From Alphaproteobacteria bacterium (lineage in GTDB: Bacteria; Pseudomonadota; Alphaproteobacteria; RF32; CAG-239): a DNA stretch of 64,000 bases. The first letter of the stretch is position 1; the number at the start of each line of letters is the position of its first letter. Made by a program: the position numbers and the translations under genes. The notes below the pieces were generated by a model. It was not told the DNA's origin. It worked only from the letters and a program-made list of their open reading frames with translations, and did not search any database. Below are positions 10,407-34,780 of the stretch, one piece after another. The DNA is taken from assembly GCA_017467515.1 (NCBI GenBank), contig JAFUSU010000028.1, forward strand, positions 128,399 through 192,398. Direction: 5' to 3'.

Positions 10407-10916
10407 TTATTCAGACTGCGGACCGCAACGGGTTGCAAACTCCAAATCGTGAATAAAATCCTCAATTTCCTGCTCATGTTCCACTTCTTCCTTTAATAAT
10501 TTTTCAGCTAAGCGAAAAGTAACATAATCGGTTGTATGGCAGATTTCACATAGTTGCTGATAATGGCTGACAGCGCATCGTTCGGCTGTCAGGTTTTGCT
10601 CCAAAATTTTATAGATACAGGGATCGCTGGGGGCTTCATAACGACACTTTGCTATATGGCTCCATTCATCGGGAGATAAAACAGGTGTTCCGCCTAGTTC
10701 AATAATGCGATTCGCCAACCAACCGGCGTGTTTGAGTTCTTCATTCGCGTGCTCCAAAAATTCAGCCGTGATATCCGGTCGCATCGGTCCGGCAGCCACT
10801 TGAGCGCCTATCCAATACTGGTAATAGGCTAACCATTCTTCGGCATAGGCCTGATTTAATAAATCTATAATTTTATTGAGATGATCTTTAACAATATATT
10901 GTGCTGTTTGCGCCAT
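10407..10916 (-). CDS. Ferritin-like diiron protein (bacterioferritin-related)
   Basis: Matches bacterioferritin pattern LNK(L/I)(L/I)..E..A..QY ... E.LEHANEELKHAGWLANRIIELGGTP (compare E. coli Bfr [26 protein letters not shown]). Confidence 0.6.
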   Translation of the reverse strand: MAQTAQYIVKDHLNKIIDLLNQAYAEEWLAYYQYWIGAQVAAGPMRPDITAEFLEHANEELKHAGWLANRIIELGGTPVLSPDEWSHIAKCRYEAPSDPCIYKILEQNLTAERCAVSHYQQLCEICHTTDYVTFRLAEKLLKEEVEHEQEIEDFIHDLEFATRCGPQSE

Positions 10917-11019
10917 AATTACTCCTCCTTATTGGTTAAAATCAGAAAAGAAGTAATCATTTTTAAGGGAATATCAATAATTGGTGTGTTATATTTCTGC
11001 TAAAACAAGGGAGAAAAAA

Positions 11020-22126: not shown

Positions 22127-22228
22127 TGGTGCCGGTAATTAAAAACACGGAGAAGATAAACTTCCCCGTGTTTTTTTATATGTATGAGCAAAGAAAAAAA
22201 TATTTCCGATGATGAGGTCAAAGTGCAT

Positions 22229-29315: not shown

Positions 29316-30032
29316 ATGAATAAAATTTGCTATTCTTCGGAAATATACCATTTGGCGGTTGAAGATGTTATATCTTTGCCGGATTCAAACGTATCTCTCC
29401 CTTATACACCTAAAGATCAAGTTATCATTTTGATCGGTAAACGACAATTGTGGAACCCTGATTTTCCGGTACAACAAGATGCTTTGCTTAAAGGTCGTAA
29501 AGTCGTGGAAAAGGCTATTGCTCAGGGAGAGGATTATGTACCGGTACGTATCGCTTTTGAGTCCCGAATTAAATCGTATGATATTATCTCACCGATTATT
29601 CGTAAATTGCGCTATAAATATAATTTGTTCGGTAGCAACATATATCATATGCGCACACAAGAAATCAGAGAAAAAGGGCTGGAAAGAAATTTAAGAACAG
29701 CTGAAAATGCTTATAAATTTTCTAATCCGAAATATAAAATGAGTAAGGCTCAACGCCGTGCGACATATGAAAATCTGCTCAAAAGTATGAGAGAAAACGG
29801 ATATGACGATGCATTTCCTTTGGATATTATGTTGTGTCGTAATATGGGCATACAAGATACTTTAAATCAAGGGCATCATCGTATGAGCGCTGCAATTGAA
29901 TGCGGTATAGAACGGGTATCGGTTGAATTTTGTGCGGCGGGGCAATCGCCGAAATTTTTGCATTTGCTGTTTTATATGGTTGCAAAAATGAATATGTGGA
30001 TTAAACACATCATAAGTGGTTTGAGGACATAA
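29316..30032 (+). CDS. ParB/Srx-fold (ParB-like nuclease domain) protein with unknown N-terminal domain
   Basis: C-terminal QGHHRMSAAIECGIERVSV matches the ParBc/sulfiredoxin/DGQHR-type signature ([DQ]G.HR..AA....G...(I/V)(P/S)V); agggagt SD. Confidence 0.55.
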   Translation: MNKICYSSEIYHLAVEDVISLPDSNVSLPYTPKDQVIILIGKRQLWNPDFPVQQDALLKGRKVVEKAIAQGEDYVPVRIAFESRIKSYDIISPIIRKLRYKYNLFGSNIYHMRTQEIREKGLERNLRTAENAYKFSNPKYKMSKAQRRATYENLLKSMRENGYDDAFPLDIMLCRNMGIQDTLNQGHHRMSAAIECGIERVSVEFCAAGQSPKFLHLLFYMVAKMNMWIKHIISGLRT

Positions 30033-31084
30033 TGAAAAAAATTATTCATATTTCTAATTTTAATTTAATTCGTCTGAAAGGGTGTTTTCAAGTCGGATTT
30101 CCGTTTAAAATTTCAAATGGTCTGATTCGTAACGGATATGCCGTTTTTAATTATCCGGATCGTGATTTGTGTCGTATGTTCGGTTTTGGTCATCAAAATT
30201 GGTTTGCTAAAAGAAAATTAAACCAACACTTAGTGGATTATTGCAAAGTAATGGAGCCGGATGCGTTGTTTATCGGACACGCAGATCTGATAGAAAATGA
30301 AACGATTTTAAAAATCAAAGAGATGTTTCCTCAATTAAAAGTATTGCAATGGAGTTGTGATTGGATTGTCCCGCAAATGGCGGAAAGAAACATTAAGGCC
30401 ATTCAAAGTAAATTGGACGTGGCCGATGTTAATTTAATCAGCACCGGTGATAAAAATCTGTTGAAGCAATTTAAAACAGGCAAAAACCGTGTGGGTTATG
30501 TTCCGAATATGGCTGATGATGCCTTAGAAACGGGCAGGGCATTTGAAACTGAAAATTTACCCTATGATATTATGCTTTGTGCCAATACCGGTCGCCGACA
30601 GTTTTGCGGAAAAGATGAGGAGCTTGAGGATATCATTACTGAAAGCACAAACAAAATAGAAAACTTACGCTGGAAATTAGCCGGACTAAACGGTCAGCCG
30701 CCATTAAACGGATTTGAATATATTCGGGCTTTAGGACAAAGCGCTATGGGCCTCAATCTGAGCCGTGTTAATGACGTTTATTTGTACAGTTCAGACAGAT
30801 TGATTCATTCTTTGGCAAACGGACAGCTTGTCTTTTTAGATAAACGGAATGGTTTTCAAGATATTTTTAGAGATGACGAAGTCGTATTTTATGAAACAAA
30901 AGAAGAATTTTATGAAAAGGTGGCTTATTTTAAAAATAATTCTCGGGCAAGGATGAAAATTGCCTCAAAAGGACATCAAAAAGCACATACGGAATTTAGC
31001 AACGTAGCTATAACAAAGTATATGGCAGACGTTCTGTTTGATGAAGATTACAAACCGCAAAAGATATGGCAGATTATAATCTGA
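30032..31084 (+). CDS. CgeB-like GT-B glycosyltransferase (Glyco_trans_1_2/DUF3880-type)
   Basis: C-terminal pattern YSSDRLIHSLANGQLVF...DEVVFYETKEEFYEKVAYFKNNSRARMKIASKGHQKAHTEFS resembles the CgeB-family/GT-B C-lobe consensus; start overlaps the upstream stop (TAATG). Confidence 0.5.
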   Translation: MKKIIHISNFNLIRLKGCFQVGFPFKISNGLIRNGYAVFNYPDRDLCRMFGFGHQNWFAKRKLNQHLVDYCKVMEPDALFIGHADLIENETILKIKEMFPQLKVLQWSCDWIVPQMAERNIKAIQSKLDVADVNLISTGDKNLLKQFKTGKNRVGYVPNMADDALETGRAFETENLPYDIMLCANTGRRQFCGKDEELEDIITESTNKIENLRWKLAGLNGQPPLNGFEYIRALGQSAMGLNLSRVNDVYLYSSDRLIHSLANGQLVFLDKRNGFQDIFRDDEVVFYETKEEFYEKVAYFKNNSRARMKIASKGHQKAHTEFSNVAITKYMADVLFDEDYKPQKIWQIII

Positions 31085-31167
31085 AGAAAATGCTTTACTT
31101 TTTTACGCTTTTACATTATGTTAGCCTTGTTTTGAGTCATAACGGAAGGTCAATAAATAATTAAATT

Positions 31168-32193
31168 ATGTTACTCCTATGTTTTTATGCCGGTCTGGCA
31201 ATTATCATATCATTTATTTGTTCTGTTTCAGAGGCATCACTTTTATCTATTACGCCAAGTTATATTGCACAATTGGAAGAAAAAAATCCGAAGTGGTATA
31301 AACGTATTTCCCATCTAAAACGGAATATGGATACTCCTTTGGCGGCTATTCTTACGTTGAATACAATAGCCAATACGGTTGGTGCGGCAGGCATAGGTGC
31401 GCAAGTTACATACTTATACGGTTCTTCTTATTTAGGATTGGCATCAGGATTGATGACAATTTGCATATTGATTTTCTCGGAAATTATGCCTAAGACAATC
31501 GGCTCAAAATATTGGCGTCAATTAATACCGGCCGTTTGTGTTATGGTCGGTATTATGGTCGTTGTCTTAAAGCCTGTTTTGTATATATCAGATTTTATTA
31601 TGGGCCTTTTCGGGAAATCAGAGGCAACTGATGTGAAGGCAGAAATCAAGGCTTTAGCTAAAATTGGTCGAGATTCTAATTTGCTGGATGATACAAAATT
31701 CAGAATTATCAATAACATTATAAAATTACAAGAGGTCAGTGTCGGAGATGTGATGACGCCGCGTACGGTTGTTCATAAAGTAAAACCGGGTATGACGATT
31801 AAAGATTTTGATAATTTTTTGTGCAATACGCCATTCTCTCGTTTTCCGATTATTGATGAAAAGGAAGAAAATTTTTTAGGGTATATTCATAAGTCAAGTT
31901 CTTATGAGGCATCCAGCGATGATGATTTAGTTGATAAATATGCACGTCCGATGCGTTCTTATTCTGATGAAGCGCACCTAGAAGATGTTTTAAATTCTAT
32001 GCTGGAAGATCACAATCATATGGCGTTGGTGATAGATGCTTTTGAAAATTGGGTTGGAATTATTACTCTGGAAGATATTATCGAAACAATCTTGGGTAAA
32101 GAAATTGTTGATGAAACAGATCAGGTCGCCGATATGCGTTTATATGCAAAACAAAAATGGATAAAAAAGCGCGAACAAAAGGGTATTCAATAG
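31168..32193 (+). CDS. CNNM/TlyC-family membrane protein (DUF21 + tandem CBS domains; so-called hemolysin C / Mg/Co efflux-like)
   Basis: N-terminal DUF21 TM region followed by CBS pair (VGDVMTPRT...; ...ALVIDAFENWVGIITLEDIIETILG). Confidence 0.8.
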   Translation: MLLLCFYAGLAIIISFICSVSEASLLSITPSYIAQLEEKNPKWYKRISHLKRNMDTPLAAILTLNTIANTVGAAGIGAQVTYLYGSSYLGLASGLMTICILIFSEIMPKTIGSKYWRQLIPAVCVMVGIMVVVLKPVLYISDFIMGLFGKSEATDVKAEIKALAKIGRDSNLLDDTKFRIINNIIKLQEVSVGDVMTPRTVVHKVKPGMTIKDFDNFLCNTPFSRFPIIDEKEENFLGYIHKSSSYEASSDDDLVDKYARPMRSYSDEAHLEDVLNSMLEDHNHMALVIDAFENWVGIITLEDIIETILGKEIVDETDQVADMRLYAKQKWIKKREQKGIQ

Positions 32194-32227
32194 CCTATTG
32201 ACTATATGGAAGAATTAAAAGTCAGGA

Positions 32228-32269
32228 TTATTTTCTTCTTTGAACCATAAGTATAAAGGAGAAAATAAA
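32228..32269 (+). promoter_or_regulatory. Putative RNA thermometer: AU-rich anti-SD/SD hairpin in the hsp20 5' UTR
   Basis: uuauuuucuucuuu (32228-32241) pairs over 14 bp (13 Watson-Crick + 1 G.U) with aaaggagaaaauaa (32256-32269), sequestering the SD up to the start codon; 14-nt loop. Confidence 0.5.
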
Positions 32270-32751
32270 TGAGAAGTGAATTATCTAATACTGAAAATTT
32301 AGCAAAAGGAAGTCGAAATATTCCGATTCATATTCCGGCATCAAATGAATTAAAGCATTTTTTGCAACATTTTTGGAATACAATTGAAACACATCACAAT
32401 TCAGAAACAATGGAATTGGAACCGAAAATAGAAGTTTCAGAAAATAAAGATGCTGTTACCGTTTCTGCCGAATTACCGGGAATTGATGCAAAAGATTTGG
32501 ATTTGCAAATATCATCAGACGGCTATCTGACAATCAGTGGAGAGAAAAAAAGTACTAAAGAGAGTACAGAGTGTGATAACTACTTTTCAGAAATTTATTA
32601 TGGTATGATTAAAAGAACAATCCCTCTGCCGTGGGACTTAGATTATAATAAAGCTGATGCAAAATATAACGATGGTTTGTTATCTATTTCTATTCCCAAA
32701 ACACAAGTCGAAAAAGCCAAAGTTAAAAAAATTAATGTCAGTAAAAATTAA
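32269..32751 (+). CDS. Small heat-shock protein, Hsp20/alpha-crystallin family
   Basis: ACD region ...VSAELPGIDAKDLDLQISSDGYLTISGEKK...IPLPWDLDYNKADAKYNDGLLSISIPK. Confidence 0.85.
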   Translation: MRSELSNTENLAKGSRNIPIHIPASNELKHFLQHFWNTIETHHNSETMELEPKIEVSENKDAVTVSAELPGIDAKDLDLQISSDGYLTISGEKKSTKESTECDNYFSEIYYGMIKRTIPLPWDLDYNKADAKYNDGLLSISIPKTQVEKAKVKKINVSKN

Positions 32752-32756
32752 TTTTT

Positions 32757-32786
32757 AAGCCTCTCGTTATAGAGAGGCTTTTTTTA
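32757..32786. terminator. Terminator between hsp20 and convergent uvrB
   Basis: aagcctctc-gttatag-agaggctt + T7. Confidence 0.75.
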
Positions 32787-32788
32787 GT

Positions 32789-34780
32789 TTACAAATTCTT
32801 TAAACCCAGCTGTTCAAGTTCTTTAATTTTATCACGATAGACCATTGCCTCTTCAAATTCGAGGTTTGCAGCGGCAGTTTGCATTTTTTTCTTATATTCA
32901 CGTAAGAGCTTATCAATATTTTTAACATCTTCAATTTGCTTTGGGTTACTTTCATTTTTAACAAAATCTGTTTCGGTCATTTCGCTTAGTGTTGCAGAAA
33001 TAGATTTCTTGATTGTTTGCGGTGTAATGCCGTGTTCAATATTATATTGAATTTGTTTTTGGCGTCTGCGGTTTGTTTCATCAAGCGCATTTTTAATAGA
33101 ATCAGTTATTTTATCGGCATACAAAATAACACGCCCATGAGCATTACGAGCCGCACGGCCGATAGTTTGAATCAGAGAACGCTGGGATCTCAGGAATCCC
33201 TCTTTGTCAGCATCTAAAATAGCAACCAAAGAACACTCAGGAATGTCCAACCCTTCACGCAATAAATTAATTCCGACCAATACATCAAAAACACCAAGCC
33301 TCAAATCTCTGATAATTTCAATACGTTCCAATGTGTCAATGTCTGAATGTAGATAGCGGACTTTAATCCCGTTATCGTGAAGATATTCGGTAAGATCTTC
33401 AGCCATTTTCTTGGTCAGTGTTGTCACCAAAACACGTTCTTTTTGCTCAATAACTTTACGGCATTCTTCCATTAAGTCATCAATCTGGTTGTCAACAGGT
33501 CGGACATCACAAATCGGATCTGTTAAACCGGTCGGACGGATAATCTGTTCGGCAAAAACACCTTTGCTTTGTGTTAATTCCCAATCTCCGGGGGTGGCTG
33601 AAACAAAAATGCTTTGAGGACGCATTTTATCCCATTCTTCAAATTTGAGGGGACGGTTGTCCACGCACGAAGGAAGTCTAAATCCATATTCTGCCAAGGT
33701 GCTTTTACGATTGTAGTCACCTCGAAACATTCCCCCGATTTGCGGAATGGAAATATGGCTTTCATCAACAAAAACAAGAGCATTCTCAGGTAAATATTCA
33801 AATAGAGTAGGCGGAGGTTCACCCGGATTGCGTCCTGTCAGGTATCGTGAGTAATTTTCAATTCCTTTGCAATGACCTGTCGTTTCAAGCATTTCTAAAT
33901 CAAAACGCGTACGTTGACCGATACGTTGCGCTTCAAGAAGCTTATTTTCTTGAGTAAAATAGGCTTCCCGCTCTTTTAATTCTTCTCGGATTTGTTGCAT
34001 TGCTCGAGAAATGGTCGGGCGAGGAGTAACATAGTGGCTGGCCGGATAAACCGTAGCCTCCTCTAAGGACATCATTTTTTTTCCGGTCAAACTGTCAAAT
34101 TCATAAATATCCTCAATTTCATCGCCAAAGAAGGAAATTCTCCAACCGACATCTTCCAAATGTGACGGAAAAATATCCAGAGTATCTCCTTGAACGCGAA
34201 AGGTTGAACGGACAAAGTTGCTTTGGTTTCGCTCATATTGTAATTCAGCTAAACGTCTGTATACTTCAGGAGGATCGATTAAATCACCTTTTTTTAATTT
34301 TAACGTCATATTGCTGTACGATTCAACGTCACCCAAGCCGTAGATGCAAGATACTGAGGCCACGATAATGACATCATTATATTCCAGCAGACTACGTGTT
34401 GCCGCATTGCGCATTCGATCAATTTGCTCATTAATAGCGGAATCTTTTTCTATATAAATATCTGTTTTCGGAATATAGGCCTCCGGTTGATAGTAATCAT
34501 AATAAGAAACAAAATATTCAACGTGGTTATGGGGAAAAAATTCTTTCATTTCACTATAAAGTTGAGCGGCAAGAATTTTATTCGGAGCCATAATGAGGGC
34601 AGGTCGTTGCATTGTTTCGATAATTTTTGCCATAGTAAATGTCTTACCGCTACCGGTAACACCAAGTAAAACCTGACTTTTATCGCCTCTTTTTAAGCCG
34701 TCACATAATTCTTTAATAGCCTCGGGCTGATCGCCTGATGGCTCGAAAGGGCTGCTTATTTGTAACTTATTGTGAATCAT
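32789..34780 (-). CDS. uvrB: Excinuclease ABC subunit B
   Basis: 663 aa; Walker A GVTGSGKT, helicase motifs, UvrB beta-hairpin region, C-terminal UVR domain ([16 protein letters not shown]). Confidence 0.97.

Follow-up and report, generated by a model that had tools for sequence, protein, structure and literature searches.

The small heat-shock gene hsp20 analysed here lies in a stretch of 64,000 nucleotides from an alphaproteobacterial assembly (GCA_017467515.1, contig JAFUSU010000028.1, positions 128,399 to 192,398 of the forward strand), the whole of which is called the window in the following. The window has a G+C content of 37.7%, and the genomes closest to it are metagenome-assembled ones of uncultured Alphaproteobacteria from rumen and gut ('uncultured Azospirillum sp.', Rhodospirillales, 'Alphaproteobacteria bacterium'). 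The gene codes for a protein of 160 amino acids of the Hsp20/alpha-crystallin family (Pfam PF00011, E 6e-17) and is the fourth and last in a block of co-directional genes with short gaps (29316-32787). Its ribosome-binding site is covered by a predicted hairpin which buries the Shine-Dalgarno (SD) sequence, and the DNA coding for the 5' arm of this hairpin overlaps a promoter-like motif of the RpoH type. The features of the locus are as follows, all on the plus strand:

29316-30032, plus strand: gene of unknown function, first in the co-directional block
30032-31084, plus strand: glycosyltransferase gene, second in the block
31168-32193, plus strand: CNNM/CBS-domain gene, with its stop codon at 32191-93, 75 nt 5' of the hsp20 AUG
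32202-32207, plus strand: CTATAT, part of a conserved 11-mer CTATAT(A/G)GAA(A/G); possible weak upstream promoter without a -35
32206-32211, plus strand: -35-like ATGGAA, 15 nt 5' of the -10-like motif; ATAGAA in most relatives and CTTGAA or ATTGAA in distant homologs
32227-32233, plus strand: RpoH-type -10-like ATTATTT (family consensus [C/A]TTAT[C/T]T), covering the first 6 nt of the 5' arm
32228-32242, plus strand: 5' arm (anti-SD) of the hairpin, UUAUUUUCUUCUUUG; its CUUC (32235-32238) pairs with GGAG and is kept in 15 relatives
32238-32245, plus strand: predicted transcription start zone of the RpoH-type promoter, placed 5-12 nt past the end of the -10
32243-32253, plus strand: loop region of 11 nt with an optional inner helix of 2 bp (32244-45/32251-52)
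32254-32268, plus strand: 3' arm, UAAAGGAGAAAAUAA, containing the SD GGAG (32258-32261) and the entire spacer of 7 nt
32269-32751, plus strand: hsp20 coding sequence, with the AUG (32269-32271) directly abutting the helix
32757-32787, plus strand: intrinsic terminator 3' of hsp20, with a 9-bp stem and a T-run

No intrinsic terminator was found between the stop codon of the CNNM gene and the start of hsp20, the only one on the plus strand of the scanned region (31900-32900) being that behind hsp20. Thus, transcripts leaving the CNNM gene meet no terminator ahead of the end of hsp20.

The preliminary description of this DNA had claimed 14 contiguous base pairs between an upstream segment and the SD/start region, and these are indeed present: UUAUUUUCUUCUUU (32228-32241) pairs with AAAGGAGAAAAUAA (32255-32268) via 11 A-U, 2 G-C and 1 G.U pairs. 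Folding with RNAfold extended the helix to 15 bp by the added pair G32242.U32254, resulting in a total of 2 G-C and 2 G.U pairs with the remainder being A-U. The helix spans the SD and all of the spacer and stops just before the AUG. The hairpin alone has a calculated free energy at 37 °C (dG37) of -14.1 kcal/mol, and the segment from 32215 to 32290 reaches -15.3 kcal/mol (z = -2.46), with 3 of 200 dinucleotide shuffles being equally stable. We further calculated the duplexes formed between positions -75 to -22 and -20 to +3 for all open reading frames (ORFs) of at least 100 amino acids in the window. That of hsp20 was the strongest of 71 (-15.7 kcal/mol; mean -7.2, standard deviation 3.0), and equal pairing with this SD region was reached by 0.08% of dinucleotide-shuffled upstream segments and by 0.16% of random 54-mers from the window. 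The SD-hiding hairpin before hsp20 is therefore real and represents more than a chance complementarity. The second-strongest duplex in the window (-15.2 kcal/mol) belongs to a plus-strand ORF of 111 amino acids at 22184, which is not preceded by an SD motif and is doubtful as an ORF call. Two other functions of the hairpin were considered and rejected: an intrinsic terminator or attenuator, because no U-run follows the helix, and coupling to the termination of the upstream ORF, because its stop codon at 32191-93 lies 35 nt away from the helix.

To follow the hairpin through related genomes, we gathered 115 non-redundant hsp20 upstream regions (80 genome loci and 35 metagenome loci) together with the contigs encoding ten close homologs. 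Among these, 15 distinct close relatives (72-90% Hsp20 identity) share the layout of the window, which reads CTATAT(A/G)GAA(A/G) - N14/15 - A(T/C)TAT(C/T)T - pyrimidine run - variable loop - AAGGAG - spacer - ATG. All 15 of them form an SD-burying hairpin with dG37 values of -8.9 to -15.6 kcal/mol, while neither the sequence nor the length of the loop is constant (11-21 nt) and the spacer between -35 and -10 also diverges freely. The two arms change in a coordinated manner, as illustrated by the combinations UAUCUCC/GGAGAUA, UUUUCUCC/GGAGAAAA and UAUCUCUC/GAGAGAUA, and the same structural position is occupied by U-A, A-U or C-G pairs in different relatives. On a neighbour-joining tree of Hsp20, which is a weak tree of a short protein, the variant classes are intermixed, suggesting that they may have arisen in several separate events. 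Because the register of the arms shifts between relatives, the coordination was assessed by swap and permutation tests and by counting pairs anchored on the SD. In 13 distinct relatives, the own combinations of 5' arm and SD were superior to swapped ones (energy sum -168 versus -139.7 ± 8.5, P 3.5e-4), and helices anchored on the GGAG partner contained 58 pairs contiguous with the SD core, versus 31.9 ± 5.8 after permutation (P 5e-5). The CUCC/CUUC run 3' of the -10 is absent in homologs without the hairpin.

The promoter under the 5' arm was recognised by comparison with distant hsp20 homologs, many of which carry the motif (C/A)TTGAA-N15-(C/A)TTAT(C/T)T ending 31-38 nt 5' of the ATG. This motif equals the RpoH consensus of S. 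meliloti as quoted in PMC4843759 from Barnett 2012 (CTTGAA-N15-16-CCTATAT/CCTATCT). In its strict form, CTTGAA-N15/16-[CA][CT]TAT.T, it was found at seven sites in 1.25 Mb of fetched DNA, and at five of them it lies 31-37 nt before an hsp20 ATG. In two loci (L007 and L008) it follows within a few bases 3' of an intrinsic terminator and must therefore be a promoter there. The corresponding motif of the window, ATGGAA-N15-ATTATTT, ends 35 nt before the ATG, and those of the relatives, ATAGAA-N15/16-ATTATCT, end at 32-39 nt. Applying the usual distance of 5-12 nt between -10 and start, as given in PMC3616915, the predicted start would exclude 11-15 of the 15 nucleotides of the 5' arm from the transcript, or 12 of 15 at the central estimate of about 32240, and 65-100% of the 5'-arm nucleotides lie upstream of the predicted start in every relative. 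According to the same source, the RpoD and RpoH consensus sequences of S. meliloti are alike, and for this reason no sigma factor is assignable to the predicted hsp20 promoter (PMC3616915). Scanning for a sigma-70 consensus gave no usable promoter in the region 32081-32384. We also searched the window for further heat-shock genes from which a local RpoH consensus might be obtained, but six-frame motif searches for GroEL, DnaK, ClpB, FtsH, RpoH and others returned no other heat-shock gene in the window, and no second hsp20-type promoter preceding a gene was found within it.

Further upstream, the conserved 11-mer CTATAT(A/G)GAA(A/G) (32202-32212 in the window) occurred 20 times in the 1.25 Mb, 18 of them before hsp20. 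Its CTATAT corresponds to the sigma-70 -10 hexamer of S. meliloti (PMC2873474), and a start from it, if active, would yield a leader of about 54 nt containing the whole hairpin. The 11-mer is near-invariant in loci L001-L003, L081-L083 and L118-L128 and has a palindromic core, CTATATAG. It merges the sigma-70-type -10 hexamer CTATAT with the -35-like ATAGAA and is conserved beyond the need of a -35.

The reading that we prefer, and in which we place about even confidence, is that hsp20 carries a promoter-embedded anti-SD element, by which the translation of the mRNA would be set by the promoter that made it. The hairpin would then probably silence only read-through transcripts and not act as a thermometer. 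In the mechanism that we infer, read-through from the terminator-less CNNM operon, or weak starts from CTATAT, would produce RNA carrying both arms. These long transcripts would fold the 15-bp helix, bury the SD and the spacer and yield no Hsp20, whereas transcripts from the RpoH-type promoter would begin at about 32240 without most of the 5' arm, leaving the SD open for translation. Heat induction would then be mainly transcriptional via RpoH, and the hairpin would insulate hsp20 from unrelated transcription coming from upstream. At 37 °C, the SD is predicted to be unpaired with a probability of 0.001 in the long isoform, as opposed to 0.86 in a short isoform starting 7 nt past the -10, and this contrast is also predicted across most of the family. 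The ingredients of a promoter within a hairpin are found at the locus to different degrees: an SD-sequestering helix is predicted for long transcripts, a promoter lies inside the DNA of the 5' strand at the level of its motif, and a potential source of incoming transcription exists in the co-directional gene 75 nt upstream with no terminator before 32757.

The order of the CNNM gene followed by hsp20 is retained widely in the clade (CNNM identity 57-74%), and the region in front of hsp20 shows four arrangements:

Arrangement i: an ordinary terminator ahead of the promoter, with a weak duplex only (L007 and L008, also L010)
Arrangement ii: a terminator hairpin (GACCGC...GCGGUC plus U-run) enclosing the -10 (L098)
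Arrangement iii: a strong anti-SD inside the -35/spacer region (L097, and L064 in the spacer)
Arrangement iv: an anti-SD at -10/+1 (window group, L028/L043/L070 group and L037/L039/L053 group)

The L037/L039/L053 group shows the placement of arrangement iv behind a different upstream gene. In arrangement iii, L097 contains a 14-bp complementarity, AAAACUCCUUGAAA/UUUCAAGGAGUUUU, in the -35/spacer region with -20.6 kcal/mol. In L097 (1430-1500), L064 (2400-2473) and L096 (1360-1434), all of which have an unmistakable CTTGAA-N15-ATTATYT promoter, a strong anti-SD is located within the -35/spacer or immediately ahead of it. An anti-SD placed in the -35 or spacer is never part of a transcript from the adjacent promoter. 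In L098 (1375-1443), UGACCGC...GCGGUCA followed by UUUUUUU encloses the -10 ATTATTT, so only transcripts from upstream would hold both strands and terminate; judged by its sequence, this hairpin appears to be the transcription-level counterpart of the anti-SD arrangement. We regard the wider proposition, namely that hsp20 genes in gut and rumen alphaproteobacteria of this clade (possibly also ferritin, see below) repeatedly evolved insulation by a promoter in a hairpin, with the 5' strand of an SD-sequestering helix, or of an intrinsic terminator as in L098, located in any of three parts of an RpoH-type promoter (-35, spacer or -10) so that only sigma-factor-specific transcripts escape, and that the long isoform is maybe a thermometer with a high set point, as tentative and on the doubtful side.

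Other hsp20 loci look different. In L123 and L125, the CNNM gene is absent, and the hsp20 promoter and hairpin are retained directly 3' of the glycosyltransferase gene. In many relatives of greater distance (L025, L026, L032-L035, L038, L041, L044, L047, L049-L052, L055-L059, L066 and L069), a small ORF is found within 9-16 nt of hsp20 on its 5' side; it occupies about 10-120 nt before the hsp20 ATG, and its 3' part codes for Gly/Cys-rich repeats (GGTTGCGGCTGCGG...) and an acidic tail. Together with hsp20, it looks like a two-gene operon without the window-type promoter or hairpin. In three relatives with 64-65% identity, an ORF of 86-90 amino acids adjoins hsp20 (L129, 1236-1504; L130, 1232-1504; L131, 969-1241), ending 4 nt before the hsp20 start codon in L129 and overlapping it by 4 nt in L130 and L131. 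This suggests that translational coupling may replace the hairpin layout in these three loci.

A similar layout of promoter and anti-SD was observed within the window at a second gene:

10916-10407, minus strand: ferritin gene with a promoter/anti-SD layout like that of hsp20 (window 10914-10980)

Its promoter motif, TTGATA (10977-72) - N14 - ATTACTT (10957-51), ends 34 nt before the ATG, and ATTACTTCTTTTCT (10957-44) pairs with AAGGAGGAGTAAT (10930-18) at -15.0 kcal/mol, ranking third among the 71 ORFs. The upstream neighbour, rpe, is divergent. The motif is kept as TTGATA-N14-ATTATCT in both of two ferritin relatives examined, while the complementarity is kept in L135 (-11.4 kcal/mol) but not in L132/L133 (-5.6 kcal/mol).

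The preliminary description had interpreted the hairpin as a thermometer of fourU- or ROSE-like design, possibly a compact ROSE variant, and had expected its largely A-U stem to melt at physiological heat-shock temperatures. The SD-sequestering hairpin in front of an alphaproteobacterial hsp20 stands, with conserved and coordinated arms, but its assignment to these classes does not. A search of 31900-32600 against Rfam 15 by cmscan with permissive filters returned no ROSE, FourU or other thermometer family up to E = 10, the 17 matches obtained being of chance level (PGK, gltS, snoRNAs). In ROSE elements, which are built of several stem-loops, the SD helix owes its lability to a bulged G and non-canonical pairs, whereas the window has no bulged G and a single uninterrupted helix of 15 bp in an intergenic spacer of 75 nt. 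In fourU elements, four U pair with AGGA; here, G58 G59 A60 G61 pair with C38 U37 U36 C35 (last two digits of the coordinates), which places CUUC opposite the SD, and the run U31-U34 pairs with A62-A65 of the spacer and not with the SD.

To calibrate the calculated stability, we subjected three Salmonella fourU hairpin-2 constructs to the same ViennaRNA calculations, with their sequences, melting temperatures (Tm) and in vivo behaviour taken from PMC3185406 (dG37 in kcal/mol):

fourU G14A-C25U: Tm 35.9 °C, derepressed; predicted dG37 -9.7, SD-T50 68 °C, P(SD open, 42 °C) 1.2e-2
fourU wild type: Tm 41.1 °C, working thermometer; predicted dG37 -12.0, SD-T50 73 °C, P(SD open, 42 °C) 1.0e-2
fourU A8C: Tm 52.2 °C, expression fully blocked; predicted dG37 -18.7, SD-T50 87 °C, P(SD open, 42 °C) 5.7e-3
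Window hairpin: predicted dG37 -14.1, SD-T50 86 °C, P(SD open, 42 °C) 9.5e-4

While the total dG37 ranks the window hairpin between the working and the blocked fourU, local opening of the SD ranks it as tighter than the blocked A8C variant, the predicted opening at 42 °C being about 10-fold under that of the functional fourU and 6-fold under that of A8C. Most hairpins of the relatives behave similarly (predicted T50 from 76 to >99 °C). The calculated stability therefore leans against a thermometer operating between 37 and 42 °C and would be compatible with a higher set point; melting of the stem in the physiological heat-shock range, as proposed initially, is not what the calculations predict.

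A genuine thermometer nevertheless represents the most serious rival explanation, although we consider it unlikely. It would be a single hairpin unrelated by sequence to ROSE or fourU, contained in transcripts which start upstream of 32228, either from CTATAT (start at about 32214) or as co-transcripts of the CNNM gene, and its A-U-rich helix would melt on heat. The complete sequestration of SD and spacer and the conservation of the hairpin with coordinated changes agree with this explanation, as do several relatives whose hairpins (-8.9 to -9.9 kcal/mol) are level in dG37 with the working fourU (-12.0) or a little below it, and near the derepressed mutant (-9.7). Moreover, long-stem variants contain G.U pairs in the SD core and short-stem variants a perfect CUCC, as if the stability were held in a range. 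On the other hand, the helix runs past the SD free of mismatches, bulges and internal loops, in contrast to characterised thermometers, the SD is predicted to open less at 42 °C than even in the blocked A8C variant (at an SD-T50 of 86 versus 87 °C), and a -35 is missing from the CTATAT candidate. Because the 5' arm overlaps a promoter which is unmistakable in the homologs, heat-shock transcripts would lack the sensor. The in-promoter helices of other lineages are far more stable and contain G-C pairs (-20.6 kcal/mol in L097, -18.8 in L053 and -17.1 in L039), and the presence of the hairpin follows the absence of an upstream terminator. The preliminary description had itself named a transcription start past the anti-SD as the observation that would refute a thermometer, and the predicted start at 32238-32245 fits it for the RpoH-type promoter only; in transcripts starting farther upstream, the hairpin could still act as a thermometer.

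Several points weigh against our preferred reading of a promoter-embedded anti-SD element and partly favour the thermometer. Small heat-shock protein genes are classic clients of RNA thermometers, and the total dG37 of -14.1 kcal/mol falls between those of the working (-12.0) and the blocked (-18.7) fourU constructs. The promoter of the window is a motif match only, agreeing in 4/6 positions with the -35 CTTGAA at a spacer of 15 nt and in 5/7 positions with the clade form CTTATCT of the -10, or in 4/5 specified positions with CYTAT-N-T. CTATAT might serve as a promoter dedicated to the full-length leader; this would favour conditional opening as in a thermometer because a dedicated promoter for a permanently locked mRNA makes little sense. 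When RNAalifold was applied to a plain MAFFT alignment, the invariant 6-bp SD core was all that it recovered, without any compensatory pair; this column-wise blank result is due to the shifting register of the arms. The dependence on context, which in itself favours the preferred reading, was analysed among loci with a recognisable promoter, using mechanical ORF calls and ignoring phylogeny: where the upstream ORF is co-directional, ends at a distance of 59-98 nt and is followed by no terminator, the median duplex was -11.6 kcal/mol, as compared to about -6 to -7 kcal/mol for loci with terminators or divergent neighbours (Mann-Whitney P 0.004). L096 has a strong anti-SD despite its divergent upstream neighbour. 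Because both L096 and the ferritin gene show the layout without a co-directional upstream gene, co-directional read-through does not explain every case and need not be the only source of long transcripts. A thermometer, or some other conditional switch acting on long RNA, therefore keeps a modest probability.

An incidental complementarity, in which a T/C-rich -10 and initially transcribed region would simply match a purine-rich SD and an A/T-rich spacer, appears improbable to us. The A+T-rich genome would facilitate such matches, the reverse complement of the -10 ATTATCT, AGATAAT, is a plausible SD-spacer sequence, and swapped pairs of 5' arm and SD among homologs still average about -8 to -10 kcal/mol. 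The similar match at the ferritin gene and the lack of column-wise compensatory pairs in RNAalifold point in the same direction. In contrast, the hsp20 duplex ranks first of 71 ORFs, with P values of about 0.001 from shuffling and background, and the complementarity is kept in 15/15 relatives despite the free divergence of loop and -35/-10 spacer. In addition, own pairs are better than swapped ones (P 5e-5 to 4e-4), homologs without a hairpin lack the CUCC/CUUC run after the -10, and equivalent anti-SDs arose independently at other promoter positions.

CIRCE and HAIR operators of heat-shock repressors sit around the -10 and the gene start, and the inverted repeat likewise spans the -10 and the start of hsp20, but a DNA-level element, be it a CIRCE/HAIR-like operator or a promoter-occluding cruciform, is hardly credible, given that the arm sequences and their spacing (11-21 nt) vary while complementarity is kept, that the G.U pairs would be mismatches in DNA, and that the window contains no match to the CIRCE operator with up to three mismatches allowed.

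If the preferred reading of a promoter-embedded anti-SD element is true, calls of thermometers before heat-shock genes from sequence can err, since the position of the transcription start decides, and an A-U-rich SD hairpin before a small heat-shock protein gene is not automatically a thermometer but may be a promoter-selective translational lock. The mechanism of T4 late genes and insertion sequences would extend to ordinary chromosomal stress genes, and in compact genomes without terminators between genes, fold-back structures may serve to prevent the synthesis of stress proteins from read-through mRNAs. The one gene order of CNNM and hsp20 with its four solutions represents a natural experiment which is directly testable. 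The class of mechanism is known from phages and insertion sequences, and a counterpart for a cellular heat-shock gene would, if confirmed, be the first described. In our literature searches, no account of such a mechanism turned up for any heat-shock gene of a cell under an RpoH-type promoter, which only weakly indicates that none exists.

The closest parallel is provided by phage T4, where long transcripts of genes e, soc, 49 and I-TevI fold over the SD and/or the AUG and are poorly translated, while late promoters located in the DNA of the 5' strand of the SD-sequestering structure give rise to late transcripts that lack this strand and are well translated (PMC3014915). As in T4 gene e, the -10 of the window lies inside the 5' arm and the predicted start is near the 3' end of the arm. 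Unlike in T4, the gene is a chromosomal heat-shock gene with an RpoH-type instead of a phage late (gp55) promoter and is known here from its sequence alone, and the incoming transcription would stem from a housekeeping operon rather than from a temporal programme. Insertion sequences IS10 and IS50 reportedly protect themselves from outside transcription by a fold-back, in which read-through RNA contains a segment from upstream of the element's own start that pairs with the ribosome-binding site of the transposase, as described by Davis, Simons and Kleckner in 1985. At the left end of IS200, a terminator guarding against impinging transcription is found together with a stem that sequesters the SD (PMC4513863). 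The hsp20 family resembles the insertion sequences in using either an anti-SD or a terminator (L098, L007, L008) and differs from them in serving a host stress gene, for which the selective reason of avoiding constitutive small heat-shock protein synthesis is our conjecture.

Among the thermometers, fourU of Salmonella agsA is similar in being a single short hairpin before a small heat-shock gene with a U-rich anti-SD strand and the SD in the stem. As described in the sources consulted for it, AGGA is paired to the four U, and the Tm is held at 41 °C by an A.G mismatch (PMC2887971, PMC3185406), whereas the helix of the window is perfect over 15 bp, has GGAG opposite CUUC and gave no Rfam match. 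ROSE shares the alphaproteobacterial host, the small heat-shock protein gene and the masking of the SD by a 3'-proximal hairpin. In the account given in PMC2887971, ROSE is composed of several stem-loops and a temperature-labile helix with non-canonical pairs, as opposed to the one perfect helix in the 75-nt intergenic spacer of the window. The hsp17 element of Synechocystis, listed in PMC4477652 among the smallest thermometers, is likewise a single hairpin before a small heat-shock protein gene. It contains an internal 1x3 bulge between two short stems, whereas the helix in front of the window hsp20 is uninterrupted and lies with half of its length under the promoter.

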